A stretch of 18,290 nt of DNA, taken from a bacterium (lineage in GTDB: Bacteria > Cyanobacteriota > Vampirovibrionia > Gastranaerophilales > JBAXKC01). The DNA is taken from the NCBI GenBank assembly GCA_037137535.1, contig JBAXKC010000045.1, positions 1 to 18,290 of the forward strand, in the 5' to 3' direction. The position numbers were made by a program, and so were the translations under genes. Position 1 is the stretch's first letter. Each line of letters starts with the position of its first letter. This document shows, one piece after another, positions 1-18,290 of this stretch. The notes beneath the pieces were generated by a model, which was not told the origin of the DNA, did not search any database, and was given only the letters and a program-made list of their open reading frames with translations.

Positions 1-78
1 GCGGTGATTGGTCTTTTTCACTAGTTTTACTTTTGTTAGCAAACAATCTTTTTCCGCTATTCATTACGTCTATTTATA
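1..78 (-). ncRNA. Putative bridge RNA, 5' part with target-binding loop
   Basis: Nested stems GCGG/CCGC (57-54 with 4-1) and GATTG/CAATC (48-44 with 10-6) enclose an internal loop. The loop holds TTTGCTAAC (43-35, identical to the left target flank 102-94) and AAAAAG (18-13, complement of the right flank CTTTTT). Confidence 0.7.
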
Positions 79-94
79 TATTTTATTGTACGAG
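1..94 (-). mobile_element. IS110-family left end (non-coding, bridge-RNA-bearing), truncated by the window edge
   Basis: Minus strand reads ...TTTGCTAA-CT-cg-TACAAT, with a CT core at 94-93 and a -10 hexamer at 90-85. The flanking repeat copy stops exactly at this core. It pairs logically with the right end at 18104-18124. Confidence 0.75.
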
Positions 95-236
95 TTAGCA
101 AAAACAACAACATAGCAGCTCTTAACCGCTACTGGCTTCTTTTCATACTCTTTGAGCGGTTTTGCACAAAATAATTTTTGAGAAAAGAAGCAAACCGCTT
201 ATGGGCAGTGGGCTTAGTTGAAGCTTTTGCCAAAAG
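93..236 (+). repeat. Dispersed multi-hairpin repeat, segment 1 (3' half only)
   Basis: Contains AAAAACAAC...CTTAACCGCTACTGGCTTCTTTTC...GAGAAAAGAAGCAAACCGCT, shared with the other copies. The 5' half is replaced by the IS110 end. Confidence 0.9.
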
Positions 237-253
237 AATTCATATGATTTAAG

Positions 254-1465
254 CTAAACCTTATAAATAACATTACCATCCTGATTGTATAAATTATTAA
301 TACTATCTTTCATTTTTTGGTCTGGAAAATTCTTGTATTCCTCTTTATACATATTGAAATAAAGCCCTTTTTTATCGGCAAGGTCAAAGATATACTTGTT
401 TCTTACGTCAATTATAAACTTTTTGCCGTCCTCAGCATTGTATTCCAGCCATGAATGATCTTTATTTATCATTAAAGTAGTATTTATACCGCTTAATTGT
501 GCCGTTGCCTTTAAAAACATTGACTGCACCAGACAAGTAGCGACCGAAGCAGGTAAACCCATACTACCTGTTGAAAATTCACCTATATCAACAATACGGC
601 ACGGATATTTTTTTTGCTTGTAGTCTGAATAATATATAAATTTGCCATTCATAATCAAGCCGTTTTCATTGTGTTTTGAGGTATGAATAATCCCGTTTTT
701 CTCATATTCATTAGTAATAAGTTTTGGCTTAAAAAAGTCTGTTTCTGTTTCAAGCAAAGCCTTTGCAATGTTTATTGAAGCTGATTTATCTGTATTTTTT
801 AAGTTTTTGTTTAACTTTTTTGACGCTTCAACCAAAACCTTATCATCTTCAAGATTTATTCTTACTTTGGAGAGAAATTCCTTCCCTATATCATCGTTTT
901 CGGTTAATTTCATCACCCCGCTTGGATAAAACGGCTTGTAGGTAAAAACAAACCCCTTCTCAAAGTCGTCAGACAGCTTAGCAACAGCTTTCCTTCCATC
1001 AAGAACGGCGAGCCTGTTATAATACAGATCGGACATCTGTTTAATCGGTGCATCGGCATTGATGGCATTTGCCTGCTGTAATAACTGCAAACGGATTGAA
1101 GTTATTCTTGCTTTGTTTGAATTATGAATCTGCACCTTCTTCGCTCTGTCTTCACCAGTTGTATTATCTTTTGCTATGTATTTATAGCGTTTATTGTTCA
1201 TTTCCGCCTTATCAACATAACTCAAACCCTTATTTGCAAGCCTATTTTTGGTTTTATAGTCAGTTTTTTCTTGTGAGGCTTTATTTAGATAAGTTTCAGC
1301 CTTATCCAAAGCTTGACCAACTTCCTTTTCTATAATATTTAACTTTGTCTCAACCGTTACATCTTTATCTTCAAGTATATTTAAAGTTTCTCTGTTTTTC
1401 TCGATAATTGCCTTTGAAGAAGCAGACTGCTTAAATGAAATATAAGGATTAGTTAATAAATTCAT
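254..1465 (-). CDS. Hypothetical protein with helical N-terminus and C-terminal transglutaminase-like (Cys-His-Asp) domain
   Basis: 403 aa ORF. The motif ATCLVQSMFLK...GI...DHSWLEY...FIIDV has the spacing of a transglutaminase-like triad. Confidence 0.6.
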   Translation of the reverse strand: MNLLTNPYISFKQSASSKAIIEKNRETLNILEDKDVTVETKLNIIEKEVGQALDKAETYLNKASQEKTDYKTKNRLANKGLSYVDKAEMNNKRYKYIAKDNTTGEDRAKKVQIHNSNKARITSIRLQLLQQANAINADAPIKQMSDLYYNRLAVLDGRKAVAKLSDDFEKGFVFTYKPFYPSGVMKLTENDDIGKEFLSKVRINLEDDKVLVEASKKLNKNLKNTDKSASINIAKALLETETDFFKPKLITNEYEKNGIIHTSKHNENGLIMNGKFIYYSDYKQKKYPCRIVDIGEFSTGSMGLPASVATCLVQSMFLKATAQLSGINTTLMINKDHSWLEYNAEDGKKFIIDVRNKYIFDLADKKGLYFNMYKEEYKNFPDQKMKDSINNLYNQDGNVIYKV

Positions 1466-1496
1466 TGTAAAAACCTTTTAAAAGCTAGTATAATCA

Positions 1497-1575
1497 TATA
1501 AAACAGCTAAAGAAAAAAGTTGCTGTAAGTAAATTTATTATTACATAACAATTTTTGCAATGATCTTGTTTTAAA
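1497..1575. promoter_or_regulatory. Two divergent copies of the bipartite motif RCAAYT-N12/13-TGTTTT
   Basis: GCAACT-N12-TGTTTTATA on minus (1523-1497) and ACAATT-N13-TGTTTTAAA on plus (1548-1575), each 30-40 nt upstream of a start codon. Confidence 0.6.
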
Positions 1576-1611
1576 TTATTGAGCATTAAATATCTTTTTA
1601 AGGGTTTTTAA

Positions 1612-2718
1612 ATGATTGAAACGACAAATCTTTCTAAAATAAATTTAACCTCCCAAAAACAGATAAAAAAGCCTTCTACTATAGATAACAAAAGAAATCT
1701 TTCATCTAAACTGAATTATAAGAAGCAATTAAAAAAAGACGAGTATTCTCTTTCTCAGAAACAGGCTCAAAAAACAGGTATAACTTTAATAATTTTAGGA
1801 GCACTCTTTCTAGCCGCAGTAGGAACAGCCCTATATTTTAAAAAGGCTAAAGACGCCATAATGAAAATATTTAGAGGCGGTAGGGCTGCAATTTCTTGGG
1901 AAAAAAGAGTGCAAACAACACTTCAAAAGTCATCTAATACAGCTATATCTGAATTTGCATCAAAAATAAAACTTACACGCTCTGGAAAAATTGAAGTCGA
2001 AGATAAAAAGAAATTACTGCAACTTATTAAGCAGGAATATATAAAAAACAACCTTACTCGTGATGAATCAAACGAGTTATGTAAATTGGTACATCCGCCA
2101 ATAGCAAGAAAAACAACTGTAACTAAAACCATTAACTACGAGCCATACAATAATTATTACCATAATGACTACTACGATGGATATAATAGGGGACGACTTG
2201 AAGAACAAGTTGATAATATGCGTTATGACTGGATGGAAAATGAACACAGATCGCAAGAAGTTCAACCAGCAAAACAAACGATTTTATTGAATAATAATGA
2301 GCTTTGGAATGAAACGAATAAGACCGCAGAAAATACATTAGGATACGATGCTCCGCATGTTAACGAAGCTCTTAATGATATTGATTCTTCAAGCACTCAA
2401 TTAGATGATTTCCTTAATGAAAGGGAAGATTATGATAATTTTGATGATATATTCAGCAGTTCAGAGGAATCAAGGGATTTTAACTTTGAGAACTCAAGCA
2501 GTTACGAATCTGACAACTTTTCGAACGATTCAAATTACCCAAACGATTATGATTATAACAATTATTCCGATAACTCATATTCTTCAGACTATAACAGTTC
2601 ATCAGATGACTCAGGCAGTTGCCTTTTTGGAAACTCAGACAACTCCGGCTCTGATAACTCTTGGCTCTCTGACAGTTCAAGTTGTTATGACAGTTATGGC
2701 TCGGATAATTCTTGGTAA
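1612..2718 (+). CDS. Hypothetical single-TM protein with basic N-half and acidic Ser/Asp/Asn/Tyr-rich tail
   Basis: 368 aa ORF with TM segment GITLIILGALFLAAVGTALYF and a low-complexity C-terminus. Confidence 0.8.
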   Translation: MIETTNLSKINLTSQKQIKKPSTIDNKRNLSSKLNYKKQLKKDEYSLSQKQAQKTGITLIILGALFLAAVGTALYFKKAKDAIMKIFRGGRAAISWEKRVQTTLQKSSNTAISEFASKIKLTRSGKIEVEDKKKLLQLIKQEYIKNNLTRDESNELCKLVHPPIARKTTVTKTINYEPYNNYYHNDYYDGYNRGRLEEQVDNMRYDWMENEHRSQEVQPAKQTILLNNNELWNETNKTAENTLGYDAPHVNEALNDIDSSSTQLDDFLNEREDYDNFDDIFSSSEESRDFNFENSSSYESDNFSNDSNYPNDYDYNNYSDNSYSSDYNSSSDDSGSCLFGNSDNSGSDNSWLSDSSSCYDSYGSDNSW

Positions 2719-2781
2719 TCAACCATTGTTAAAAAATACACAAAGATAAAAGTTAAAATAATTCATTAATTATTTGTTTTA

Positions 2782-3008
2782 ACAAGTAAATTATCTTCGT
2801 TGCTTTACGGTTTCGATGTCTGAAACCATCGACTAACTTTTTATTTTTTGAAAAATAAAAAGAGCCAGCAAAAACAAAAATATTGTTGGTTCTTTACCGC
2901 TACTGGCTTCTTTTTTTACTCTTTGAGCTTTTTTGCACAAAATAATTCTTGAGAAAAGAAGCAAACAGCTTGTGGATGGTGGAACCTTGGTTAAAGCCTT
3001 TGCGAAAA
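2782..3008 (+). repeat. Dispersed multi-hairpin repeat, copy 2
   Basis: GTAAATTATCTTCGTTGCT...CCATCGACTAACTTTTTATTTTTTGAAAAATAAAAAG...ACCGCTACTGGCTTC...GAGAAAAGAAGCAAAC. Confidence 0.92.
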
Positions 3009-3032
3009 CTATATTTTTAAAGACAAAAACCG

Positions 3033-3070
3033 TTTACAGATTTATTTTTAAAATCAAATAAATCTGTAAA
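3033..3070. repeat. Perfect 15-bp inverted repeat (operator or hairpin)
   Basis: TTTACAGATTTATTT-N8-AAATAAATCTGTAAA. Confidence 0.7.
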
Positions 3071-3136
3071 TCCTTTCATAATAAACCTTTAATGCTTTCA
3101 GACATGTCAAAACACATGTAAATAAATAAATTCGGC

Positions 3137-3164
3137 GCAATTTTTCAAGTCGAAATGTTTTTAT
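3137..3164 (+). promoter_or_regulatory. Bipartite motif GCAATT-N13-TGTTTTTAT
   Basis: Exact match, 48 nt before the ATG at 3212. Confidence 0.65.
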
Positions 3165-3211
3165 AAATATATAGAGGATTTAATAGTATAAGAGTTTTAA
3201 AGGGGATATGA

Positions 3212-3520
3212 ATGGCTGGAATTGGAGCAATCGGCGGCGGCGGATCAAATGATGAATTATTAAAAAAATTAATGCAAAAACAACTGGCACAAGGTTCAGG
3301 ACAAGTTCAAGGCGACCAAAAGGCACAAGGTACGCAACAAGCTCAAGGAGCTAACCCATTTTCAGGCACATTGCCACCCCAAAAACTTGATGAAAGTATC
3401 TTTAAAGACAATAATAAAGTAAAAAAAACAGACGAACCTACTCAAGGCGGCTTAAATCAAAATATGCAGGCTCTTGAAGAGATGATGAAAAAAGAATTTA
3501 TGAAAATGAACGTGGCTTAA
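3212..3520 (+). CDS. Hypothetical Gln/Gly-rich small protein
   Basis: 102 aa ORF with an AGGGG Shine-Dalgarno-like sequence upstream. Confidence 0.8.
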   Translation: MAGIGAIGGGGSNDELLKKLMQKQLAQGSGQVQGDQKAQGTQQAQGANPFSGTLPPQKLDESIFKDNNKVKKTDEPTQGGLNQNMQALEEMMKKEFMKMNVA

Positions 3521-3525
3521 AAAAG

Positions 3526-3648
3526 AATCTCTCGTGACATAGAAAGCACAAACAATCGCACAGCGGAAATGGCTGACAGACTTTGGGGAGCGTATATAAG
3601 GTATGACTATCGCCTTATCTGTTTGATAAGACTTTTACGCGAGAGATT
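3526..3648. ncRNA. Candidate structured RNA of unknown class
   Basis: Closing stem AATCTCTCGTG/CGCGAGAGATT with inner hairpins CAGC/GCTG and ATAAGGT/GCCTTAT. It is GC-richer than its flanks and followed by a terminator. Confidence 0.35.
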
Positions 3649-3660
3649 TTCCAATTTAGC

Positions 3661-3691
3661 AAAAGAGGAGTTTTATCAAACTCTTCTTTTT
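3661..3691. terminator. Bidirectional intrinsic terminator
   Basis: AAAAGAGGAGTTT-tatc-AAACTCTTCTTTT between convergent genes. Confidence 0.75.
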
Positions 3692-3716
3692 GTGTTTATT
3701 TAAAAAAAACAGAAAT

Positions 3717-4781
3717 TTAGGCCGCCAAATTAGCGTCAATAATATCGAGAGCCGATGAGATTCCCAGAGCCTCATCGGCTAATTTAAACTTTACGTCCCC
3801 CACAGAGCCGCCTGACAATTGCCCAAGTACAGTCATAAGTGAGTAAGCAAGGCATACTAAACCAACATGGTTCGTTAATTTATTCCAGCTTTGCATCATC
3901 AAATAATCCAGTCCCAGCTTTTGTTTAGCCTCTCGGTGAAATACCTCAACTTGCCATCTCTTTAAATATCCGACTTTCAATTCCTCGCTTGTAAGATTAA
4001 TATTGTTTGAGCCGATAAAATATTCCTCGTCTTGGTGGCAAAATCGAAGTATTTTAACCTCTCCTTTTATGTCATTAAGCTTACAAATTACACTTTCGTC
4101 ATAATTTAATCCTAATTTCTGCAATTGAGCATTATTTTTAGCAATTTGAACCTTTCTATTCCTTTTCAATCTTGTAAACCAAGTAAATCCTTTCCTATTT
4201 AGCCACTTTATGATTTTCTTTGAGGCAAAAAAACTATCGAACATTATTGTCTTTACAGGGATTTACATCAACAAAGACTTTTTAAGTAAATTTAAAAATA
4301 TATCAGTTTTTGTCTTGTATTCACGCTTGTTTACCAGTTTTGAGCTAACCCAAATGCTGAAATCAAGAGGAATATATATTTTCCCATTTGTCAGTCCTAA
4401 GCTAATAAGTTCATTTTGAGGCATGTTTTTCATCCCTCTTATGCTTTTCAATCCTTTTTTTGTTATTCTATTTTTCGCATATTGCTGCCTCAAAGGCGTT
4501 CCATCCACAACAAGATAGAAATTTAAGGCTGTAAAGATTGGCAATATTAGTTTTGCCAATTGATAGAACAGGTTTTTCCAGTTTATCTTTGATTCTAAGA
4601 AATCATAAAGCGGCCATTTGCTTCTTACTTTAGTATTTTTAGATATTCTATTCGTGCTAAAGCTTCTCTCTTGATAAATTAATCCTATTAAATATTTTCG
4701 GAATGAAATTTTATCGATATCATTTAAAACAAATGATAGAATGTAATTGAGAAATATATTTAGCCAAAATGATTGGCTCAT
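3717..4781 (-). pseudogene. DDE transposase (IS701-like) interrupted by one in-frame TAA at 4265-4263
   Basis: The two ORFs are in the same frame (...LM*IPVKTIMFDSFF...). Catalytic motifs VVDGT, MFDSFF and RWQVEVFHREAKQKLGL are present. Confidence 0.85.
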
Positions 4782-4787
4782 AATTAA

Positions 4788-4823
4788 AGCCTCCTGTTTA
4801 ACTATATTGTGATTCAGGAGGCT
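4788..4823 (-). promoter_or_regulatory. Hairpin sequestering the transposase Shine-Dalgarno (AGGAGG)
   Basis: AGCCTCCTG-N18-CAGGAGGCT, whose 3' arm on the minus strand is the SD just upstream of the ATG at 4781. Confidence 0.65.
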
Positions 4824-4900
4824 ACTTTATTTCAACTCGTTTTTGATTATCCTAATCTTCTGATAAAAATATTAACATAAGTTCAGCATAACGTTTTTAG

Positions 4901-5122
4901 TAAGAACCCTCCATCAACCCCCAACACTAACGAGCGGCTGGCTTCTTTTCTTACTTTTTGAGTTGTTTTACATAAAATAATTTTTGAGAAAAGAAGCCAG
5001 TAGCGGTCAAAAACTGCCATGTTTTTGTTTTTACTCCCTTTTTATTTTTCAAAAAATAAAAAGGGAGTTGATGGATTTATACATCGAAACCGTAAAGCAA
5101 CGAAGATTATTTACAGTTAAAA
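4901..5122 (-). repeat. Dispersed multi-hairpin repeat, copy 3 (loop of last hairpin inverted)
   Basis: Reverse complement of copies 2 and 4, except 4952-4986, which is in plus orientation. Confidence 0.92.
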
Positions 5123-5147
5123 GAAAAAAATTTATGATTAAAACCCC

Positions 5148-6794
5148 TTAATGAACACCAAGGTTTTGAAGTTCATGAACTATTTCTTTAAAGACATTAG
5201 TCCAATCTCCGTGGACTTTTTGCCTGAATATTCTCATTGAAGAATAATAAGGGGAGTCTTTTCCTTTGGTAAACCATCTCCAGTTTGGGGCGTATGGGAG
5301 CATAAGCCATGTTTTAACTCCTAAAGAACCGGCAAGATGTGCAACTGAGGTATCAACAGTAATTAATAAATCAAGTCCCATTATAGCGGCGGCAGTATCA
5401 TCAAAAGAAGTAAAGTGAGAGCCAAGAGATTCAACACTAAAGGAAACTTCTTCAATCTGATTTACACCAGAGCCAACAAGCAAAGAATAAAGCATTACAT
5501 CACTAACGTCAGCTAAAGAATTAAAAGCGGAAAGGTGTTCAACACTTTTTAGTCTATCTCTTAAATCATTGTTTTTAGAATGCCATACAAGTCCTATTTT
5601 CTTAGAGGAATTATTGAAATATTTTTTTGAAAATTCATGAACTTTTTTAGAATCGGAAATTAAAAAGCCATCCGCAAAAGGAAATTTTTCTTCCTTGAAA
5701 AACCAGACAAGGCAAAATAAATTTGTTTGGAGGTCATATTTTACGTCAGAATAATCAAAAGACTGGCCAACAACTTGAACATCGGGAAAACTTCTTTTAC
5801 AAATATCCAAAAGCCCATCCTGAACTTCAAAAATAACTTTTGCACCTGCCTTTATTAAAAACGGAATATATCTTGCATATTGAATAACATCACCGTAACC
5901 GGCTTCATAATAGACAAAAACGGTTTTGCCTTCAAGGTTTCCGCTAAAATCATTAAGATGCTGAACCTTTAAATCTTTTCTTTCAAAAAGAAGCCGTCTG
6001 TATTTAAAATATTCCCAACCGTTTTCAAGGTCGCCTTTTGCAAAATAAGCCCTTGCAAGGTTAAACTTGTATCCATCATAGGACGGATTTAATTTAACGG
6101 CACTATAAAAGCTCTCTATGGCCTCATCGATCATATTTAAATCAAGGTAAGAGTTCCCCGAATTATTATAACTTTCTGCACAATCAGGGTTATTTTCAAT
6201 TGCTTTTTTATTGAAATACAGGGCTTTTTCGAGTTCATACAGGTCGTAATAAAGTCCGGCAAGATTTATGCAAGTAGCCGCACTTGTTGAATCGAGTTCA
6301 TAGGCTTTCAAATAACAATCAAGTGCTTTCTTAGGATTATCAGCTCTTGATAATGCAAAGCCAAGATTGAAATAATCAAGAGCAGTCTCTTTTTCTTTAC
6401 ACACTACCTCAAAAACCTCAGCAGATTTAACAAAATAACCGGAGTAAACAAGTGCTGTTGCATAATTTTGCAAAACATCAAAATCTTCACCAACTAAATT
6501 CAAATATGCCTCATAATACTTTACTGCCTTCTCAAAGCGTTGGAGGTCAAAGCTTATATCCGCAACTTGTTTTAATGCTTCAGCATCAATATTATTCTTT
6601 AAATATTCTTCTAAATAACCAAGAGCAATCTCAAGCTCCTGCGTTTGAACATGTAAAACTCCAATAAAAAACAAAGCCTCAGAATTTGACGGTTCAAAGT
6701 TCAAAACTTCAATATATAATTGCTTTGCCTGCCTAAGATCGCCCTGTTTATGCGAATCAAATGCAGTTGCAAGTTTTTGCTCAACAATTGACAT
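5148..6794 (-). CDS. TPR-repeat protein with C-terminal GT9-like glycosyltransferase domain
   Basis: Multiple TPRs followed by EAGYGDVIQYARY, IGLVW and DTAAAIMGLDLLITVDTSVAHLAGSLGVKTWLML...NWRW...SPYY. Confidence 0.9.
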   Translation of the reverse strand: MSIVEQKLATAFDSHKQGDLRQAKQLYIEVLNFEPSNSEALFFIGVLHVQTQELEIALGYLEEYLKNNIDAEALKQVADISFDLQRFEKAVKYYEAYLNLVGEDFDVLQNYATALVYSGYFVKSAEVFEVVCKEKETALDYFNLGFALSRADNPKKALDCYLKAYELDSTSAATCINLAGLYYDLYELEKALYFNKKAIENNPDCAESYNNSGNSYLDLNMIDEAIESFYSAVKLNPSYDGYKFNLARAYFAKGDLENGWEYFKYRRLLFERKDLKVQHLNDFSGNLEGKTVFVYYEAGYGDVIQYARYIPFLIKAGAKVIFEVQDGLLDICKRSFPDVQVVGQSFDYSDVKYDLQTNLFCLVWFFKEEKFPFADGFLISDSKKVHEFSKKYFNNSSKKIGLVWHSKNNDLRDRLKSVEHLSAFNSLADVSDVMLYSLLVGSGVNQIEEVSFSVESLGSHFTSFDDTAAAIMGLDLLITVDTSVAHLAGSLGVKTWLMLPYAPNWRWFTKGKDSPYYSSMRIFRQKVHGDWTNVFKEIVHELQNLGVH

Positions 6795-6847
6795 TAATAG
6801 CCCTTAACATTCCTATAACCTAGATTTTATCACATTCCTATAAACAC

Positions 6848-7078
6848 GTCATGCTTAAATTGTTTCAGCATCACCTTAAATTATTGGATTTTTACCTCTG
6901 AAATTTGTTCGTTGCTATACGGTTTAAATATCTAAAGCCATCGACTCCCTTTTTATTTTTGAAAAATAAAAAGGGAGTAAAAACAAAAACATGGCAGTTC
7001 TTGACCGCTACTGGTTTCTTTTCTGACTCTTCGAGTTGTTTTACACATAATAATTTTCGAGAAAAGAAGCAAATCGCC
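6848..7078 (+). repeat. Dispersed multi-hairpin repeat, copy 4, preceded by a GTCATGCT..TTCAGCATC REP-like palindrome
   Basis: REP-like unit at 6848-6872 and core from ~6891, including hairpin ACTCCCTTTTTATTTT/AAAATAAAAAGGGAGT. Confidence 0.92.
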
Positions 7079-7283
7079 TTATTTGAATTTACATTTATTA
7101 ACATAAACACAATAAACAAGTAATTAAACACCCATTAACTTCTTTGATAAGAATAAGTCTTAATTTGAATAATAAACAAAAGGAGAATTTATTTAAAAAC
7201 AAGCGGCAAAAGAGATCAAACATATCGTAACAGACTAAAGGATTTCAGGGAACATACAAATTATGTTTCCTTTCGCTGTTAAT

Positions 7284-7655
7284 TTATCTGGCTTTATAGT
7301 TTTTTGCCTTTTCGTATGCTTGTTGAACCGTCGTCTGACAAGTTTTAACTTCATTCAAAAGCAACATATCATGTGCTGTTTTCCTACTGTGAACAGCCTT
7401 AGTTAAAGCCTGCAAGTTATCAACGTTGTTTGAACCGCCAAGACACAAAGGGATCTTATGATCAACCTCAATCCATTTTTGTCCTGCATAGCCGTCTCGC
7501 TTTTTAACAAAATATTTAGTCGTTTGCGATATATCCCGCTCATCTAGGGAGATACAACTTCCAAAACAATCGAAAAGAACTCTGGCATCAACTTTTAACG
7601 CAAACAGAGAGATTAAAAAAATGACAAAAACAACAAATTTAAAACTGAATTTCAT
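7284..7655 (-). CDS. HNH endonuclease with N-terminal signal peptide
   Basis: HNH motif EVDHKIPLCLGGSNNVDNLQALTKAVHSRKT and leader MKFSFKFVVFVIFLISLFALKVDA. The ATG abuts the upstream stop (TAAATG). Confidence 0.85.
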   Translation of the reverse strand: MKFSFKFVVFVIFLISLFALKVDARVLFDCFGSCISLDERDISQTTKYFVKKRDGYAGQKWIEVDHKIPLCLGGSNNVDNLQALTKAVHSRKTAHDMLLLNEVKTCQTTVQQAYEKAKNYKAR

Positions 7656-8333
7656 TTATAAATTCCATTTCTCTTTTAATTTTTTCGCAAAATAACTACT
7701 CTGTGCAAAAGTTCCAAGATTTTCAATATAGTCGATTGCCTGTTGTTTGTCAAAATCTAAAGGCGATCCTATTTCCACCTTTTTCTGTTGTTCGATATAA
7801 GTTTTTGTCTGTGCTATACGTGTTTTTTGTTCAAAAGCTCCTTTTCGTTTTATATGCTCCTCAATATTTGAAATAGTACTCTCCTTTTCGGCCTTTTTAT
7901 TTTTTCTAAAATCGGAAGAGTTATTTTTATAGTTACTATTATATTGTTTGTCTGACATTTTGACACCAAGTAGTGTGTCAGATTGACAGCTTTCAGGTGC
8001 CATATCGACAGCGCCAAAAAAAATAGCGGTAAAAGCATATAAGTTATTATTTCCGTTTTTTGACTTTACGATAAGACGTTTTTTAATCAGCTCATTTATT
8101 GCTCTGACTACTGATCGCTCACTTATATTTAAATTCTTTGCCAGATACTCCTGAGAAGGGAATACAACAGATTTCTCGGGATTATAATGAGAAGCTAGAC
8201 CTATTAATACAAGCATTTGAGTAGGATTTAATTCAAACTGTTTAGCTGCGCCTGAAATATAAAGACGTTGCGCAAGGTTAAATCCGTTGATTTTAACCTT
8301 TTTCGGTGATGGTTTATAGTTTTGTGAATACAT
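7656..8333 (-). CDS. Winged-HTH replication initiator-like protein (HTH_36-like N-terminus)
   Basis: LNPTQMLVLIGLASH...VFPSQEYLAKNLNISERSVVRAINELIKKRLI...NNNLY, with an AGAGGAG SD and an iteron-like tract just after the HTH. Confidence 0.75.
   Translation of the reverse strand: MYSQNYKPSPKKVKINGFNLAQRLYISGAAKQFELNPTQMLVLIGLASHYNPEKSVVFPSQEYLAKNLNISERSVVRAINELIKKRLIVKSKNGNNNLYAFTAIFFGAVDMAPESCQSDTLLGVKMSDKQYNSNYKNNSSDFRKNKKAEKESTISNIEEHIKRKGAFEQKTRIAQTKTYIEQQKKVEIGSPLDFDKQQAIDYIENLGTFAQSSYFAKKLKEKWNL
7953..8011. repeat. Three iteron-like repeats inside the rep-like gene (candidate origin)
   Basis: TGACATTTTGACAC (7953), TGTCAGATTGACAG (7976) and TGCCATATCGACAG (7998), spaced 23 and 22 bp, next to an AT-rich tract at ~7894-7949. 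Confidence 0.6.
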
Positions 8334-10533: not shown

Positions 10534-10568
10534 AAAAAATCGCTGATATTGAGCCATCAGCGATTTTT
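10534..10568. terminator. Bidirectional terminator
   Basis: AAAAAATCGCTGAT...ATCAGCGATTTTT between convergent genes. Confidence 0.8.
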
Positions 10569-10586
10569 ATACGTTAATGAACTAAA

Positions 10587-11162
10587 TTAATTTACGGTAT
10601 AAGTTCCTATTTTCAAAGAGTGAACAATTTTAGGGTATTTGTCTAACCCATACAGCTCAACATATTTAATATTGCTGTTTTTCCCGTTTGTAATGACATA
10701 AGTGTATTTATCGCCTCGATAAACATTGATTGAAGTAGGTATACCTCTTGAATTTCCTAATACTTTGGCTACTTCTGCCGTTGAATTATTAAAGTCTTTA
10801 CCAGTTTCTTCACCAAGTACCGCACTGATAATCGAGTTAAGTGCTTCATCTTTTCTTGATGTGCCAATATTTGCACCATCAATTTTTATTATTTCTCTGC
10901 TGATAACCATATCGGGACAGCTTATATGAGCCGTAAATGAAACCTGCGCATCATTTAAAAGAAATTCTTTTGAATAGGGCATCCCTTGTTTTCCATCAGC
11001 ACAAAGTGCCGCATTTTTTTTGTTAATATTTTTTAAATAAGCCGTAGTTTTAGCCCATTCCTGAAATTTTGTTTCGTTCATGTTAGGTAAAGAATACGCT
11101 GCATAAGCAATGCCCGATACAAAAAAACAAGTTAAGACAGTTTTTGATAGTGCGTTAAACAT
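10587..11162 (-). CDS. Hypothetical exported protein
   Basis: 191 aa ORF with signal-peptide-like N-terminus and a GGGGAGG SD. Confidence 0.8.
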   Translation of the reverse strand: MFNALSKTVLTCFFVSGIAYAAYSLPNMNETKFQEWAKTTAYLKNINKKNAALCADGKQGMPYSKEFLLNDAQVSFTAHISCPDMVISREIIKIDGANIGTSRKDEALNSIISAVLGEETGKDFNNSTAEVAKVLGNSRGIPTSINVYRGDKYTYVITNGKNSNIKYVELYGLDKYPKIVHSLKIGTYTVN

Positions 11163-11212
11163 TTAGCCCTCCCCCTTAATCTTATTATTGCTTATTTTTA
11201 TAAAAAAAGTAT

Positions 11213-11488
11213 TTATTTGCTTTTTTTTCTGAAATCACCGTAGGTAACATTTTTATAATATCTTGAGCTTTTTGAATTGTTAGTGTTTCCGCCGTTATCT
11301 CTGGTTTCTTGTCTTGAATTATTATATCCGCCACTGTTTGAACTGGAATTATCAGACCAACTATAAGAATATGACTTAGAGGTGGAAGATTTTGACCCTA
11401 GATCCATTGCAGAGAAGGCTAAAGCCTTTGATGTTGTTATTAACAATACAAATAATGATAATAATAATCTTTTCATGTATAAATTCAC
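11213..11488 (-). CDS. Small exported Ser/Asn-rich protein
   Basis: 91 aa ORF with signal peptide MKRLLLSLFVLLITTSKALA and an AGGAG SD. Confidence 0.75.
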   Translation of the reverse strand: MNLYMKRLLLSLFVLLITTSKALAFSAMDLGSKSSTSKSYSYSWSDNSSSNSGGYNNSRQETRDNGGNTNNSKSSRYYKNVTYGDFRKKSK

Positions 11489-11502
11489 TCCTGTAAAACA
11501 AT

Positions 11503-11529
11503 AATGGCAGTTTACAATAAACTGCCATT
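11503..11529 (-). terminator. Perfect 12-bp hairpin after the CHAP gene
   Basis: AATGGCAGTTTA-caa-TAAACTGCCATT. Confidence 0.6.
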
Positions 11530-11573
11530 GAGTGAATTCATATATTTACTATTTATCTAATAGCCGACTAAAA

Positions 11574-12209
11574 TTAAGCGACAAGGCTAGTTGAATTTGT
11601 TCTGTATTTGTCCATTTTAACAAAACCGTGAATACTACTGTCTCCTGACTTGTATGTTTTTTCTCTTACGGCATTAGAGCTATTTCCTTCAATTGTGTGT
11701 ATAGTTCCGTCGGGATCTACGGATTTAACAAGTCCGATATGTTTACTGCCCTCTGATCCAAATACAATGCAATCACCTGGCTTTATGCCGATTGAAGTGT
11801 TTTGCTTTGCATAGCAGCCATTTTGTTGTGCCCATTCTCTGATTTGGCTTACTGCTGCTTTATAATTTTTTCCACCGTTATATCCCCAAGGGCATACGCC
11901 GCCATTGGCTTTTTCCCAGATGTGGCTTACGGTATCAGCACACCATGCTTCTTTTCTGCCTTGTGAAATTGACAGATAACTGCCATCTGCTTCATTTTTT
12001 CCTAGTAGTGACATGGCAATTTGAACGGGATTTCCGCCTGAGCCTTGAGCCCCTGCTATATTTGCTTGAGAAGGATTAAAAATTGAAGCTGTTTGAGGAG
12101 CAACATTACCGAACGGATTTGCGGCAGATGTTGCAGCGCCTGTATTTTGCAAAAGAGCCGCAGTTGTGTTGTTTAACTGTCTGGCTGTATCGTAAACAGT
12201 TGGAGCCAT
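11574..12209 (-). CDS. CHAP-domain peptidoglycan amidase/peptidase
   Basis: AWCADTVS...PGDCIVF...HIGLV...IHTIEGNSSNAV, with a low-complexity N-terminus and no Sec signal. Confidence 0.85.
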   Translation of the reverse strand: MAPTVYDTARQLNNTTAALLQNTGAATSAANPFGNVAPQTASIFNPSQANIAGAQGSGGNPVQIAMSLLGKNEADGSYLSISQGRKEAWCADTVSHIWEKANGGVCPWGYNGGKNYKAAVSQIREWAQQNGCYAKQNTSIGIKPGDCIVFGSEGSKHIGLVKSVDPDGTIHTIEGNSSNAVREKTYKSGDSSIHGFVKMDKYRTNSTSLVA

Positions 12210-12250
12210 AAATACCCTTTCACCTATAAGTTAAATATTTCCTTATATTA

Positions 12251-12278
12251 ATAAAAACAAACTGGGGTCGAGAATTGC
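12251..12278 (-). promoter_or_regulatory. Bipartite motif GCAATT-N13-TGTTTTTAT
   Basis: Exact match on the minus strand, 42 nt before the ATG at 12209. Confidence 0.65.
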
Positions 12279-12324
12279 CTAAAAGCATGTAAAATCAAGA
12301 AGAATTAGCTTTTAAAATAATTAG

Positions 12325-12550
12325 GAGATTCTCAATCAATTTCAGCATGACGATTTTCGTAAAAGAAAAAACGAAAGAACCACCACTAACGAGCGGTTTG
12401 CTTCTTTTCTCGAAAATGCTATTGTGCGAAGCCACTCAAAGAGTAAGAAAAGAAGCCGATGGCTTTAGGCCTCGAAATCATTGAGCAATGAATATAATTC
12501 ACTTGTGAAGCCTCATAATATAGGCGAAGGTTCGCTACGCTTGCAATGAC
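12325..12550 (-). repeat. Dispersed multi-hairpin repeat, copy 6 (middle hairpin deleted) plus a GTCATGCTGAA REP-like unit
   Basis: On plus, AGAAAAGAAGCC joins directly to GATGGCTTTAG. Head GTCATTGCAAGCGTAGCGAA on minus from 12550, REP-like unit at 12325-12351. Confidence 0.88.
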
Positions 12551-12564
12551 AGTTTTTTCTTTTA

Positions 12565-12598
12565 TAAAAAAAGAGGATTTTTACATCCTCTTTTTTTA
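12565..12598. terminator. Bidirectional terminator
   Basis: TAAAAAAAGAGGAT-N6-ATCCTCTTTTTTTA. Confidence 0.8.
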
Positions 12599-12603
12599 TG
12601 TGT

Positions 12604-12870
12604 CTATCCAATTAAATCAAGCCCTGCTTTTATTTGTTTTTGGTTCGGGTTTTCATTTAGTGCGGTAAAAATCTCACTTGCTTTATCTTTTAAAAAGCTG
12701 AAAACGGATTGTCCGTCGAGTAAATCGGGTTTTCTTACCTCTTCGGTTTCTCTTAAGAAACGGTCTCTGTTTTCTTGGCTGGAGAAAGCTAACATCTGAG
12801 CGGTTGGACCGTTTATTCCGCGAAAAGCCAGCTGCTTTGCGGCATAGTTATTTGTTATGTTTATATTCAT
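12604..12870 (-). CDS. Hypothetical small protein
   Basis: 88 aa ORF with an AGAGG SD-like sequence upstream and a terminator downstream. Confidence 0.75.
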   Translation of the reverse strand: MNINITNNYAAKQLAFRGINGPTAQMLAFSSQENRDRFLRETEEVRKPDLLDGQSVFSFLKDKASEIFTALNENPNQKQIKAGLDLIG

Positions 12871-12933
12871 TTTTTTCGATTGCCTCTTTATTTATTGATC
12901 TCTTCTTCCACGTTTAGGTGGGATGGTTTTATT

Positions 12934-13047
12934 AGTGTTTTATCTACACTCTTATATTATCATGCAAAAGTGTTTTGTCTACACTATTTAATAAAAAATT
13001 TATATTAAGGATAAATGTTAGAATTGTGTTAGTGTCAAAATTACACT
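12934..13047. promoter_or_regulatory. Three palindromic operators AGTGT-N7-ACACT
   Basis: Sites at 12934-12950, 12969-12985 and 13031-13047. The second overlaps a minus-strand TAGACA-16-TAATAT promoter candidate. Confidence 0.7.
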
Positions 13048-13412
13048 TGCTATAAGAGTATAGAGCTATAATGCATGCAAATAAAGCGTTTTAAACATAG
13101 CTTAATGTTTCTTAATGTTCAAGTTTTATTGGCGGCTTGAATAAATCAAGCTATAACAGGATAAAATACATGTAGGTATGGGCATAAAAAAAATATGCCC
13201 AGTTGGGGAATAGGTTAAATTTTTTGAAATGAGTTAATAATAATTGTTAACCCTATTTCTTAATTTTTTAACCAATCAACTATATTTTGAAAAATTTATA
13301 TTGATTTTACCCGAACAAAGACCCAGTTAAAAAACAGTTAAATAATATTTCTGTCCTTCATTGGATAGAAATTTTTTTTTATTAAATAAGTATGTAATAA
13401 AAAGTTTTAATT

Positions 13413-13473
13413 GTCATGTTGAGCGAAGCTGGATTTTATAATATTGAGATTCTTTGACATAGGCTGCAATGAT
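13413..13473. repeat. Degenerate REPIN-like GTCA... doublet
   Basis: GTCATGTTGAGCGAAGC...GAGATTCTTTG...GCAATGAT resembles the REP-like heads and tails seen elsewhere. Confidence 0.45.
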
Positions 13474-13716
13474 GCTTTGTGGGAAAGTTTAACTAATAAC
13501 CATATTTTACAGGCTTAATCACCCCAAAATCAGTAAAATGGTTTTATACGTTTTTTTATTTTAAATTTAGGTTTAATACTTAATGTATTGTTAAATATTT
13601 CATGGTTTTACTTTATAATGTTATTATTGAATTTCGCTTTATCTCCATAATGTAAGCATTTTGCTTGTTTAAAAAATCTTATTGCGTAAATCAGCGTTTC
13701 AATTTAAAATACAGAT

Positions 13717-14799
13717 ATGGATGAAATTGTAATATCAAGATTAAATATTGATGGTCATAACCCTTTCGGAGCGACTGCAGAAGAGTTGCTCGCTAATTCT
13801 TTGGATGAATCAGGACTAATTGCAGAGGATACTTTAATCAATAGTGTTTTAGCCCATGATTTATGTAAGTCTTTATTTAAAAAAAGAGAAGAATATAAAG
13901 AATCCACTAAAATTGGTAATATTTTAATTAAAAAACAAGTTATTACCGAGAAACAGCTACAAGAAGTGGTTGATCATCAACAAAAAAACCCTAATAAAAA
14001 ATTGGGTGATCTCCTTGTAGATTTGAATATGTGTCAACCTGATGATATAAGTTGCTGTCTTGATATTCAAAAGCAGATAAGATTTAACCATACTTCTCTT
14101 GATTACAATAAATTAAATAATTATCCGGCAGAAATAGTTAAAACTTCTATTGAAAAATATTTTCCTGTCGGGCAAAAACTTTCTATAAAGAGAACTTTTG
14201 CCAATGAAAAAGAAATGCACCATACTTATATTAAAGACCTTAATAAAAGGATGATGCTCATTGATTTGCCAACAAAGAACGGAGTTCCTATTCCTCTTTA
14301 TGAAAATAAGGAAATTGAAGTTACCAGTATTAATAAAGAAGGGATTTGGCTTGGTTCGGCAGAAGTTTTTAAAATTCAAAAAACAGGATTAATTGGTGCG
14401 TGGGTCCAATTGCCGAGTGTTCTGGAAAAAGTTCAGCGAAGAGAATATATGCGTTGGATTTTATCTTTCAATACTCAGCTTTTTGTTTATGGTGTAAATT
14501 CTAATCTTAGCAGTCCTGAAAATATTATAGATGTTGAAGTTAAAAACATTTCAGGCGGAGGAATTGCGATAATTTCAAAGCAAAAACTTCCACAGAATAA
14601 ATTCTTTTATATCAAAGTTGATTATAGAGATATTTCTGCGATGGTGAAAATTCAATTTATTCATGAACAGTTTGATGCGTATACTAAAAAAATGACCACA
14701 GGCTTTAAATTTCTTGAACTTGATTTTAAAACTATTGATAAAATTCATAAAATTGGCGTATTTAACGAGCTTCAAATGAGAAGAAAAGGTTTTATTTAA
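13717..14799 (+). CDS. c-di-GMP receptor: MshEN-like + YcgR-type N-domain + PilZ (flagellar brake-like)
   Basis: Tandem KIGNILIKKQVITEKQLQEVVDHQ and KLGDLLVDLNMCQPDDISCCLDIQ, plus PilZ motifs QRREYMR and NISGGG. Confidence 0.85.
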   Translation: MDEIVISRLNIDGHNPFGATAEELLANSLDESGLIAEDTLINSVLAHDLCKSLFKKREEYKESTKIGNILIKKQVITEKQLQEVVDHQQKNPNKKLGDLLVDLNMCQPDDISCCLDIQKQIRFNHTSLDYNKLNNYPAEIVKTSIEKYFPVGQKLSIKRTFANEKEMHHTYIKDLNKRMMLIDLPTKNGVPIPLYENKEIEVTSINKEGIWLGSAEVFKIQKTGLIGAWVQLPSVLEKVQRREYMRWILSFNTQLFVYGVNSNLSSPENIIDVEVKNISGGGIAIISKQKLPQNKFFYIKVDYRDISAMVKIQFIHEQFDAYTKKMTTGFKFLELDFKTIDKIHKIGVFNELQMRRKGFI

Positions 14800-14834
14800 T
14801 TATTCTAAATCAAGTTTAGACTGATATTTTATGA

Positions 14835-15086
14835 GAATTCAACTAAGAACCGCTCCAAATGAGCGGTTTGCTTCTTTTCTCAAAAATGCTTTTGTGCAAA
14901 ACGCCTCAACGAGTAAGAAAAGAATCAAGTGGCTGTTAAGAACTTCAATGTTTTGTTTTTGCTTATTTTTTATTTTTCGAAAAATAAAAAGTAAGTCGAT
15001 GGCTTCAAACATTGAAATCATTAAGCAACGAAGAAAATTTACAGGTAAAAACTCATAATCAAGGCGATTGCTACACTCGCAAAGAC
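14835..15086 (-). repeat. Dispersed multi-hairpin repeat, copy 7 (full length)
   Basis: Reverse complement of the consensus, with head GTCTTTGCGAGTGTAGCAATCGCC. Confidence 0.92.
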
Positions 15087-15105
15087 GGATTAAGAAAAAG
15101 AACGC

Positions 15106-15220
15106 AAAAAAAAGCCTATGGAAACCATAGGCTAGCAATCTCGGTAAACTTCAGGTCCTTGCGGACCTTGTCTATTTAGTGAGTTTAGAGAAACAAAACA
15201 TCTAATGAAAGATGTTCATG
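15106..15220 (-). ncRNA. Candidate ~115-nt sRNA
   Basis: Consensus promoter upstream, hairpins AACATCT/AGATGTT and AGGTCC-GCAA-GGACCT, and terminator AGCCTATGG-ttt-CCATAGGCTTTTTTTT. Confidence 0.65.
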
Positions 15221-15225
15221 TATCA

Positions 15226-15253
15226 ATTATATAATAAAAAGATATCGTGTCAA
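15226..15253 (-). promoter_or_regulatory. Sigma70 consensus promoter
   Basis: TTGACA (15253-15248)-16 bp-TATAAT (15231-15226). Confidence 0.7.
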
Positions 15254-15363
15254 ATGTTTATTCACATTATAATTGTCTGATTACATGTAAAATGATTGTA
15301 TAAATAAACTAAGTCATAATAGTATGTTTTCATGTGTATTTTGATGAATAAAATATGCTTTAT

Positions 15364-15397
15364 GGTTAATAACCCCTGTTATTAAGGGGGTTATTAA
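15364..15397. repeat. Palindromic cluster of three TTAATAA/TTATTAA boxes with G/C flanks
   Basis: GGTTAATAACCCCTGTTATTAAGGGGGTTATTAA, with 11-bp inverted arms. Confidence 0.6.
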
Positions 15398-15595
15398 TGC
15401 CTTGTTGTGCTTGCTTTTTACGCTGATTAATGAACTAAGATTATTTTTTTAAAAAACACTTCTAATGCCTCTAAAAATATGTTAAATTAAATAAAAACAA
15501 ACGAAGCAGTTTTTTTGTTTATTTAGTGTGAGAGTCTTTTGTGTAGTTAAGAAAAATATTTTCTATTTCATCTCGGTAAGGAAGGAGTCAATTTT

Positions 15596-17308
15596 ATGCA
15601 GTGGTTTAATGACCTTAACGTTCGTTCAAAAATGATGGTTTCAGCCTTTGTAAGTGCGGCATTTATAAGCGTTACCTGTTTTATGGTTTATGATGCTATT
15701 GCTTCAATTCAAAAGCAAAATTATTATTTAACGCATACAGTTCTTGAAGGAACAAGGCAGATTTCTCAGTTAAGCCGCAATATGGGCTATATTGAGTCTT
15801 ATACTTACGAAATGATTTTAAATCATGATTTGGATAAAATCGCTGAAGTCAAAGCAAAGCGTATGAAGTTAAGAGCTGATAATGATGCTATTTTAAAAGA
15901 TTTAGAGCAAGAACATGTTAAAGATTACAATAAAGAGGCTTATCAAACCTTTAAAAGTGATTTTATGAACTGGCGCAATGTTCAAGCTAAAGCAATGAAA
16001 TTTGCAGAGCAAAACAGAGATAATGATGCTTTTGAAACTTTTAACGGCAAGAATATAAATGTTAAAAAAGCTTCAGGCAGTATGGCGGCGTTAATTAAAA
16101 TTAATAATGATAAAGGTAATGAAGTTAATCAAAGTATAAAAAAAGAGATGGACTCTGCAATCTTTAAAATTATTGTTTTTACAATTTTATCGGCAATATT
16201 TTCATTTTTCATAAGTGCTATAATTTCATTAAAAATTGAAAAAGGTATTAAAGCAGTTGTTGACTCTCTCCATGAAGTTTCTAAAGGAAATTTAAAAATT
16301 AAGCAGCTTGATGTTAAAACTAAAGATGAAACGGGAATGTTGTCATTAGCATTAAATGAGACAGTAACTTCTTTAAAATCTTTGGTTCAGGAAGTGTCTG
16401 TTTCAGTTCAGGACATAACTGCAGGTTCTCAAGAGATGAATGCGGGAGTTGAGCAAACATCAATTGCTTCTCAACAGGTTTCTTTAAGCACTTCACAACT
16501 TGCAAAAGGTTCTCAGGAAATTTCTCAGAACGTTGAAGAATCTGCTTTCAGTATTGGAAAAATGAACTCGTTAATCCAAACAATCTCAGAAGATGCAATG
16601 GAAATTGCAGATCTGGGAAATGCAACTGAATCAACTGCAAATATCGGTAGAAATTCTGTAGAAAAAGCGATAACAAAAATCCATAATATTGAAAAGACTA
16701 CTGAAGGCATTTCTCAAACAATCAGTGAATTAGGAGCTTTATCTTCCGAAATAGGTCAGATTATCGATTTAATCAAGACAATAGCTGGACAAACCAATTT
16801 ATTAGCTCTAAATGCCGCAATTGAGGCAGCTAGAGCTGGCGAGCATGGTAAAGGCTTTGCAGTTGTAGCCGAAGAAGTTAAAAAACTTGCGGAACAGTCT
16901 GGCACTGCTACCGATAAAATCAATTCAATGATTAAAGAAATTCAATCTAAAACCCAACAAGCCGTTAAAGATATGAACAACGGTGTCGATGAAGTAAGAG
17001 AAGGTGTAGACGTTGTAAATGATGCAGGAGTTGCTTTAAATGATATAATTAAAGGAGTGCACGCTGCGAATAGTAAAATTCAGCATATAAATTCCGAAAT
17101 TAAATCTGTTGCGGATACTTCAGACGGTATTGTAAGAATGATTGAAAATATATCTGCCGTTGTTGAAGAAACTGCTGCAAGTTCTCAAGAAATTTCAGGT
17201 ATAGTCGAATTACAAACTACATCACTTGAAGAAATCAGTGCAAACACAAATACTTTAGCTAATATTGCAGAACATCTGTCAGAAAAAATTACTGTATTTA
17301 AGATATAA
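15596..17308 (+). CDS. Methyl-accepting chemotaxis protein (2 TM, 4-helix sensor, HAMP, signalling domain)
   Basis: [38 protein letters not shown], with a GGAAGGAG SD. Confidence 0.97.
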
Positions 17309-17321
17309 ACAGGAGTAGAAA

Positions 17322-17834
17322 ATGGCAAATCAGTTTTCAAAAGATGAAGAACTTCAGTTGATCGTTTTTAAATTAGCCACAGAGGAGTACACAGTTCCTA
17401 TAACTTGTGTTCAAGAAATTATTATGCCTCAAAAGCCCGTAAAATTGCCTAAAAGTCCTTCATTTGTCGAGGGTGTGATAAATTTAAGAGGTAAAATCAT
17501 TCCAATCATTGATGGAAGAAAGAAATTTGGAATGGAAACATCTGAAGCAACTAATGATACAAGAATAATGGTTTTAGAGTTTGATTTACATACTATTGGT
17601 GTAATTGTAGATTCTGTTTCAGAAGTAATTTATGTGAATACCAATGAAATAGAAAAATCTCCAATGGCGGAAGAGGATACCGTAGACTTTATCCAAGGGA
17701 TCTGCAAGTATAAAAACCGCTTGCTTATTCTAATTGACGGAGAAAAAGTTTTAAATACTCATGAGATTGAAAGTATAAAACAAACTGCTGCAATGGCAAA
17801 AAATATTTCTTCTATTGCAAATCAAATGGCATAA
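17322..17834 (+). CDS. cheW: Chemotaxis coupling protein CheW
   Basis: LIVFKL..EEY...VQEII...LPKSPSFVEGVINLRGKIIPIID...GVIVDSVSEV. Confidence 0.96.
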   Translation: MANQFSKDEELQLIVFKLATEEYTVPITCVQEIIMPQKPVKLPKSPSFVEGVINLRGKIIPIIDGRKKFGMETSEATNDTRIMVLEFDLHTIGVIVDSVSEVIYVNTNEIEKSPMAEEDTVDFIQGICKYKNRLLILIDGEKVLNTHEIESIKQTAAMAKNISSIANQMA

Positions 17835-17859
17835 ATTGAAGATTTAATTATGTGTTGTT

Positions 17860-17893
17860 AGGGACTGAAATTTATTCAGTCCCTGTTTGATTT
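17860..17893 (+). terminator. Intrinsic terminator of mcp-cheW
   Basis: AGGGACTGAA-attta-TTCAGTCCCT followed by a T-rich tail. Confidence 0.8.
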
Positions 17894-17942
17894 TTGGGCA
17901 AATTTTAAGAACTACAGTAAATAATTAAAATAAAGGAATAAA

Positions 17943-18105
17943 GTCATGCTGAAATTGTTTAAGCATCTCATAAAAACTATCATTGCGAGCATAGCGAAAC
18001 AATCCAAAGCATTTTTAGGTTTTTACATTTAGATTATCTTTGTTGCCGTATGATTTCGATGTCTAAAGTCATCGACTAACTTTTTATTTTTCGAAAAATA
18101 AAAAG
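17943..18105 (+). repeat. REP-like unit plus dispersed repeat segment 8 (5' half only)
   Basis: GTCATGCTGAAATTGTTTAAGCATC, then ATCATTGCGAGCATAGCGAAACAATC...CATCGACTAACTTTTTATTTTTCGAAAAATAAAAAG, cut at the AG core. Confidence 0.9.
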
Positions 18106-18290
18106 ATTATGTTATGGAAGTCAAATACTTTTTAGAATAATTGGAATCAAAAGGTGTTCTGTTTCTTAAAATAGCAGCGGCAGTTGCAAGCATTTTTCTC
18201 ATAACAGCGATAAGTGCTACTTTTTTAGCTTTACCTGATTCCGTAACAACTTTTGTGTAAACCTTAATTTTGAGAGATTAGAGAAATTTT
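18104..18290 (-). mobile_element. IS110-family right end, truncated by the window edge
   Basis: Minus strand ends TTGACTTCCATAACATAATCT, an outward -35 followed by a CT core, overlapping the transposase 3' end. Confidence 0.85.
18107..18277 (-). pseudogene. IS110-family transposase C-terminal fragment (not in the ORF track)
   Basis: Manual translation SLKIKVYTKVVTESGKAKKVALIAVMRKMLATAAAILRNRTPFDSNYSKKYLTSIT* matches the IS110 C-terminal GK.KKVAL.A.MRK motif. An in-frame TAA lies at 18280-18278. Confidence 0.8.

Follow-up and report, generated by a model that had tools for sequence, protein, structure and literature searches.

Cognate ends of an IS110-type element in an AT-rich intergenic repeat bound an 18-kb contig that may be a small circular replicon of a Gastranaerophilales-like bacterium

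The closest described counterparts of the element considered here are insertion sequences (IS) of the IS110 group. According to the available text of Durrant et al. 2024 (PMC11208160), the DEDD RuvC-like N-terminal catalytic domain of IS110 corresponds to PF01548, a CT core is highly conserved in IS110 targets and donors, and the excised circular form rebuilds a promoter across that core; the left target guide is identical in sequence to the top strand of the left target, and in the RNA the target-binding loop falls within the first 104 nt. That elements of the IS110 family insert site-specifically in palindromic extragenic repeats is established, to judge from the accessible parts of Tobes and Pareja 2006 (PMC1525189) and of Durrant et al. 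2024 (PMC11208160). The available part of a preprint on ISPpu10 (10.64898/2026.03.19.712850) presents a target stem-loop as a specificity element and describes IS copies that border amplified segments. Here we describe the two ends of an IS110-type element, found at the two ends of an 18,290-nt stretch of DNA that is a whole assembled contig (JBAXKC010000045.1; called the window throughout), and we weigh whether the DNA between them is a small circular replicon or part of a larger one. The contig is whole, since the records of the window's own proteins place them on one contig of 18,290 nt. The source of the window is a Gastranaerophilales-like bacterium; the Gastranaerophilales are non-photosynthetic relatives of cyanobacteria.

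The right (3′) end of the element occupies positions 18106-18290 on the minus strand, and was recognised by translation, by a protein family match and by tblastn. It encodes the last 56 codons of a transposase (18277->18110), whose stop codon at 18109-18107 is separated from the core by 1 nt only. The single NCBIfam match of this transposase tail is to NF033542 (IS110 family RNA-guided transposase; E 3.2e-4), with residues 13-42 aligned to positions 314-343 of a profile of 343; the score is far under the full-length cut-off, as expected from a fragment, and the family call rests on 56 codons. Pfam gave no match for the 56-residue tail. A tblastn search of the tail against a plasmid collection matched 1105 records, and genes annotated ‘IS110 family transposase’ underlie 19 of the 25 matches listed; identity to such genes is 44-46%, across 79-89% of the fragment.

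The left (5′, non-coding) end lies at positions 1-92, also on the minus strand. It lacks any open reading frame (ORF), and at 92/93 it leaves the repeat family that is described below. Non-coding DNA thus extends for at least 92 nt at the left end versus 1 nt beyond the stop codon at the right end, which is a feature of IS110 elements. The two ends are co-oriented, since the 5′ non-coding end (92->1) and the transposase C-terminus (18277->18110) are both read on the minus strand. At both junctions, positions 93-94 and 18104-18105, we find a core that reads AG on the plus strand and CT on the strand of the IS. Terminal inverted repeats are absent (12 identities in 30 positions between the IS ends). 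When the right end, one core and the left end are joined, they form a promoter, TTGACT-17-TACAAT, with 10 of 12 matches, a result equalled in 214 of 20,000 shuffles. The -35 element TTGACT belongs to the right end and finishes 13 nt before its terminus, and the -10 element TACAAT starts 2 nt into the left end.

The left end also contains a guide-like 9-mer at positions 35-43 (minus strand), which is a candidate for the left target guide of a bridge RNA. Read from 43 to 35, it reproduces exactly the left target flank and the first base of the core (102->94); when the left end was shuffled 5000 times, a match this long arose once. The corresponding match for a right guide was equalled in 2906 of 5000 shuffles, the right flank being a run of T-nucleotides. 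Two short complementary stretches flank the 9-mer; the fold of the 92 nt, an incomplete end, has a z-score of -0.48 against shuffles, which is not significant. Searches with Rfam (E <= 1) found no match at the IS ends, and two sub-threshold matches elsewhere in the window are at the level of chance; blastn of each IS end against the plasmid collection likewise found none. The exact boundaries, the core, the junction promoter, the guide-like 9-mer and the lack of inverted repeats together indicate that these are the cognate ends of one IS110-type element. The original prediction, which was made from the letters of this DNA without database searches, had described them as co-oriented halves of a single element; the transposase tail, core, promoter and 9-mer bear out two ends of one type of element in one orientation.

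One peculiarity of the right end is an in-frame TAA at 18280-18278, in the transposase frame and 11 nt from the contig end. With three codons upstream of it, this triplet carries little weight; it may mean that the IS copy is a pseudogene, or that the final bases of the contig are unreliable.

The element interrupts a member of a family of repeats of about 240 nt. Six further copies are present in the window, three of them inverted, and these are 61-85% identical over 88-173 nt. The family thus has seven loci in 18 kb, all intergenic and in both orientations, and a 34-nt pattern with three mismatches allowed has 2 matches versus 0.00 expected (200 shuffles). The right half of the interrupted copy is segment 1 (93-215, plus strand), which is 81% complementary to copy 7 over 111 nt and aligns with the other right halves. 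Its left half is segment 8 (18019-18105, plus strand), which is 85% identical to copy 2 over 88 nt and holds the 5′ arm of a hairpin (18076-18091), its CG loop and 12 nt of the 3′ arm. In an alignment of all eight segments, the segment at the right end stays within the family up to 18105 and the one at the left end resumes at 93, with no loss of sequence and with only the AG doubled. The boundaries 18105 and 93 that had been proposed are therefore exact to the base. Positions 18094-18105 and 95-98, read in series, are the reverse complement of 18076-18091, so the predicted full repeat, joined at the AG core with a perfect 16-bp stem and a CG loop, was also recovered.

Alignment places the remaining intact copies at 2763-3010 (copy 2, plus strand), 4916-5139 (copy 3, inverted, minus strand), 6888-7077 (copy 4, plus), 9571-9812 (copy 5, plus) and 14829-15070 (copy 7, inverted, minus), the last of which was also found by the pattern search. 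Copy 6 (12354-12557, inverted, minus strand) has its central palindrome deleted. The window has no exact cognate 10-mer other than the occupied site, and the equivalent sites of other copies differ at 2-3 of the 10 bases (at 2 in copy 2). Across the five intact copies, the outer five positions of the stem are paired at 5, 5, 4, 4 and 1 of 5, with four different arm sequences. The family thereby has the features of extragenic repeats like the REP (repetitive extragenic palindromic) elements, namely many intergenic copies, both orientations and a hairpin kept by compensatory changes.

Several other observations on the repeats can be recorded here. In copy 2 (2863-2872) the core dinucleotide is doubled at the site equivalent to the insertion, and 1 of the 5 outer stem pairs forms there; in the other intact copies the core is single. 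This doubling could have been left by an insertion that was later lost, or it could be due to chance. In copy 6, all of the central palindrome is missing together with the sequence that follows it (74 gap columns), and parts of the flanking hairpins are retained. A further repeat of 33 nt, 85% identical, occurs at 6848-6880 and 17943-17975, ahead of copies 4 and 8, so the repeat unit may extend further left in some copies. We considered an integron-like array and rejected it, as the copies lie in both orientations, irrespective of the direction of the genes. When 185,579 species genomes were scanned for the core palindrome, 2 records only were found, from a Clostridium and from a Flavobacterium metagenome-assembled genome (MAG); since the pattern demanded nothing else of the repeat family, we take both to be chance hairpins.

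These arrangements would be accounted for by an insertion directed by a bridge RNA, in which RNA of the left end would pair with the target and recombination would take place at the CT core. The core would then lie on the shoulder of an AT-rich hairpin in one copy of the intergenic repeat of about 240 nt. The assembler would have halted in the IS from either side, the interior of the IS being present elsewhere in the sample. That the contig stops within the IS at both of its ends implies that the IS interior is found in at least two contexts in the sample.

What kind of molecule carries the element is a separate question, on which the DNA between the two junctions bears. This unique DNA comprises 18,013 bases (93-18105), and the size of the window DNA is 18,011 nt once the IS is removed. 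Its 17 ORFs include no housekeeping gene, as judged by Pfam and NCBIfam, and it has no tRNA. It does encode a winged-helix protein of 225 amino acids that resembles replication initiators (7656-8333, minus strand). In Pfam this protein matches HTH_36 (3.8e-16), DnaD_N (29.3 bits, cut-off 27) and RP-C (26.6 bits, cut-off 24.4), and among the PHROGs it matches replication initiation and O-like families (9e-13 to 4e-10). Against plasmids and phages it has partial matches only, at 31-47% identity, to helix-turn-helix or replication proteins, and the best plasmid matches cover 24-44% of its length. All 11 of its relatives are on contigs of 931-25,479 nt. Directly downstream is a gene for a small protein with an HNH motif (7284-7655, minus strand; Pfam HNH 6e-4, PHROGs HNH endonuclease 1e-7). 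The original prediction had placed a rep/par-like module in this part of the window; the rep-like gene is indeed there, but a par gene is not found among the 17 ORFs.

A divergent intergenic region (8334-8927) precedes the initiator-like gene and is a candidate origin zone: the strand composition switches here or just inside the gene. The cumulative GC skew has its minimum at 8151. All-position skew partly follows the coding strand and was not used alone; a test on third codon positions controls for this effect. Third-position GC skew on the plus strand is negative in 7 of the 8 genes to the left of 8333 and positive in all 9 to the right, whatever their coding strand. The best switch falls after the gene that ends at 8333 (t 4.9), and 5 of 5000 permutations of gene order reach this value; intergenic skew is -0.03 to the left and +0.08 to the right. 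The minus-to-plus polarity of the switch is that of an origin, and it provides independent support for one.

Within this region, 8352-8575 (plus strand) is richer in G+C, lies upstream of the initiator-like gene and ends in a terminator-like hairpin and a T run (8541-8565). It might be a small RNA; its fold is no better than shuffles, and it has no Rfam match. Another stretch without any ORF of at least 60 amino acids, 12871-13716 (846 nt), is AT-rich (GC ~0.27-0.31) and contains 20-nt direct repeats at 12934 and 12969, which are 35 nt apart. It could be a regulatory or a second origin-like region.

We propose, as the likeliest arrangement, that the contig would close into a circle of ~19.5 kb, in which a single minus-strand IS110-group IS would lie between two genes. 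One of these encodes CheW (17322-17834, plus strand, assigned by family match) and is the last gene before the right junction; the other encodes a protein of 403 amino acids (254-1465, minus strand) and is the first inside the left junction. The predicted length of the IS is that of IS110-family elements, ~1.2-1.6 kb. Several properties favour a circle: the initiator-like gene, the skew switch located at it, the lack of housekeeping genes, the cognate and co-oriented IS ends, and the abutting halves of the interrupted repeat. Furthermore, the 403-amino-acid protein has one relative among 5.8 billion sequences (40% identical), and the NCBI MAG contig that encodes it has 17,699 nt, a size close to 18,011 nt. 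We infer, but do not observe, that both contig ends come from one physical IS copy, which is what makes the circle, and the same is true of autonomous replication of this DNA. As to a single-IS circle of ~19.5 kb as such, we consider the case for and against it to be evenly balanced.

Other observations weigh against this proposal, and many of them fit an arrangement in which two separate direct copies of the IS110-group element, each at its cognate target in a different copy of the repeat, would bound an 18-kb segment of a bigger plasmid that has its origin in this contig, or of a chromosome with an integrated element; the contig would then be no more than what lies between two breaks of the assembly. 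We regard that arrangement as a serious contender, although on the whole a somewhat doubtful one. The original prediction had treated the perfect join of the repeat halves as an argument for a circle. The join is real; however, it does not separate one copy from two. Because the guide fixes the left flank, which is part of a palindrome, the 9-mer would give every insertion equal flanks, and two direct copies in two repeat copies of one sequence type would look identical, ‘reconstituted’ repeat included. The halves of the interrupted repeat share no overlapping bases able to tell one IS copy from two. The contig ends have no terminal overlap. The contig halts in the IS at either side, so the IS is multi-copy in the sample, and the window is silent on which copy follows which flank. 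A lesson of wider use is that, with a guide-directed IS, perfect rejoining of a target across contig ends is expected from one or from two copies, and does not prove circularity.

The strand composition adds to these difficulties. No second skew switch occurs in the window, neither in the 8.1 kb to the left of the first nor in the 9.9 kb to its right, so in a circle the terminus must fall in the ~0.4 kb of repeat and IS. A circle thus needs the IS to have inserted within ~1-2 kb of the terminus, at 1 of 7 repeat loci, whereas a larger replicon needs no coincidence, since long replication arms would be expected to show no second switch. In addition, no iterons were found at 8334-8927, and DnaA boxes are not enriched (6 vs 4.9 expected). 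By Pfam and NCBIfam, none of the 17 ORFs encodes a partition, multimer-resolution, relaxase, mobilisation or transfer function; partition, multimer-resolution and mobilisation genes are common in plasmids but not obligatory. A model of the initiator-like protein (predicted local distance difference test, pLDDT, 67) retrieved generic winged-helix regulators only in a fold search of the PDB, with the DnaD N-domain at rank 9. Megablast of the whole window against the plasmid collection gave no match.

Gene content points the same way. Methyl-accepting chemotaxis protein (MCP), CheW and PilZ genes are typically chromosomal, and the chemotaxis cargo of the window looks chromosomal too, as it has relatives on large, presumably chromosomal contigs. 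Among the matches listed, 17 of 119 CheW relatives are on contigs of >30 kb (up to 2.58 Mb), and the named ones are Gastranaerophilales or Gastranaerophilaceae MAGs. At that rate, finding none of 11 initiator relatives on such contigs has a chance of ~0.19, which makes the small-contig pattern of the initiator weak. Lastly, the available part of the ISPpu10 preprint (10.64898/2026.03.19.712850) describes IS110 insertions in identical intergenic stem-loop repeats that border segments of >100 kb.

The two-copy arrangement has difficulties of its own. Two independent copies would be in direct orientation as a 1-in-2 outcome, and both contig ends would have to lie in this IS and not in another repeat. 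A switch of the origin type beside an initiator-like gene, without dnaA or dnaN, would be unexpected in an ordinary chromosomal stretch. None of the 11 relatives of the initiator-like protein is on a contig above 25.5 kb, and the contig with the single relative of the end gene, at 17.7 kb, is similar in size to the window.

Both arrangements might also coexist. Homologous recombination between two direct IS copies yields a circle like the one proposed, and classical episomes integrate via shared insertion sequences. A free circle alongside an integrated form, which recombination with a chromosomal IS copy would have produced and which would have an IS copy in direct orientation on either side, would fit both the replicon-like features and the need for further IS copies that break the assembly. 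The window itself offers no support for this mixture, which we consider improbable; a single consensus contig cannot show variant bases or alternative junctions. We think it more improbable still that the contig ends are an assembly artefact, with chimeric ends or dead partial remnants of an IS: the in-frame TAA near the contig end and the unequal lengths of the IS stretches (92 vs 185 nt) could be cited for this, but the TAA says little with only three codons upstream, and exact IS boundaries with a core, a junction promoter and a tail matching the very end of the IS110 profile argue against it.

The reading that we tentatively put forward, at a little short of an even chance when all of its parts are taken together, is a native plasmid of ~19.5 kb. 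It would replicate bidirectionally from the phage-O/DnaD-like initiator gene, carry an MCP-CheW-PilZ cargo, consist of repeat for about a tenth of its length, and have the IS in the copy of the repeat at its terminus, with a guide that can still be read.

The proposed cargo is encoded toward the right junction, on the plus strand. A protein of 360 amino acids (13717-14799) has an MshE-type motif for binding cyclic di-GMP (c-di-GMP) (NF053729, 1.3e-12) as well as PilZNR and PilZ domains. It is followed by the MCP gene (15596-17308; family match) and by the CheW gene. As the PilZ gene lies directly ahead of the MCP-CheW pair, motility may be under the control of c-di-GMP.

At the other end of the window, the 403-amino-acid protein belongs to no Pfam, NCBIfam or PHROGs family and has no match in the plasmid collection. 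A scan of the species genomes with an alignment of this protein and its relative gave 92 pattern matches, 0 of which were relatives. In that alignment, the conserved C-terminal third of the protein keeps an invariant Cys, His and Asp (C311, H337 and D353), a pattern that may point to transglutaminase-like cysteine proteases. The adjacent gene (1612-2718) encodes a protein of 368 amino acids that has no family and whose long C-terminal tail is enriched in Ser, Asp, Asn and Tyr; a 114-amino-acid ORF that overlaps it out of frame is probably spurious. A DDE transposase of the IS701/IS4 type, assigned by Pfam and NCBIfam families, is split in two ORFs of 172 and 175 amino acids (3717-4781, minus strand), and is apparently a second, broken insertion sequence. 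We also considered a phage and rejected it: of 13 proteins compared with PHROGs, only the HNH, initiator-like, CHAP-type lysin and TPR proteins matched, and no structural genes were found.

If the native-plasmid reading is true, the window would hold a first candidate replicon for the Gastranaerophilales, together with a natural pair of guide and target in an AT-rich hairpin. A literature search, which covered titles only, found none on plasmids of the Gastranaerophilales among the matches listed; the one relevant title concerns Vampirovibrio. To our knowledge, no member of this Gastranaerophilales-like lineage is in culture, and genetic tools for it are lacking. A real circle would be a small natural replicon whose initiator and origin zone are mapped to within ~1 kb; if there is no circle, the contig ends are an ordinary assembly break at a repeated IS. 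In the IS ends themselves, a guide, its target, the core and the junction promoter can all be read in a natural setting, an AT-rich hairpin repeat.

Three kinds of described system can be compared with this DNA, the first of which consists of small theta-type plasmids with a winged-helix initiator. The window resembles these in that the initiator-like gene is located by a divergent intergenic region, in that the strand composition switches there, and in that accessory cargo and IS are present. Unlike such plasmids, the window has no iterons or partition system that could be found, and its circularity is inferred; the initiator-like protein is nearer to phage O and DnaD-like families than to any named plasmid Rep family.

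The second comparison is with IS621 and the IS110 group, as they appear in the available text of Durrant et al. 2024 (PMC11208160). Here the similarities are a DEDD-family transposase tail, the lack of terminal inverted repeats, a CT core at both junctions, a long left and a very short right non-coding end, a sigma-70-type promoter over the junction, a guide-like sequence identical to the left target flank within the first ~100 nt, and insertion in a palindromic intergenic repeat. Unlike IS621, the element of the window is known from 92 + 185 nt only, so that the catalytic domain, the donor-binding loop and the full RNA lie outside; its 9-mer covers the first core base only, and it has no Rfam family.

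Finally, the locus resembles ISPpu9, ISPpu10 and ISPa11, as far as the accessible parts of the two sources go (PMC1525189; 10.64898/2026.03.19.712850), in its site-specific insertion in a palindromic extragenic repeat of many copies, in the stem-loop by the recombination site and in the IS copies that border segments. Unlike in those cases, the host is an uncultured Gastranaerophilales-like bacterium, the repeat is AT-rich, about 240 nt long and has several hairpins, and one occupied site is visible. The target hairpin is almost pure A/T, in contrast to the GC-rich REP elements in the available text of the cited papers. IS110 insertion in palindromic repeats was already known, and the window adds a case of it from an uncultured lineage and in an AT-rich hairpin.

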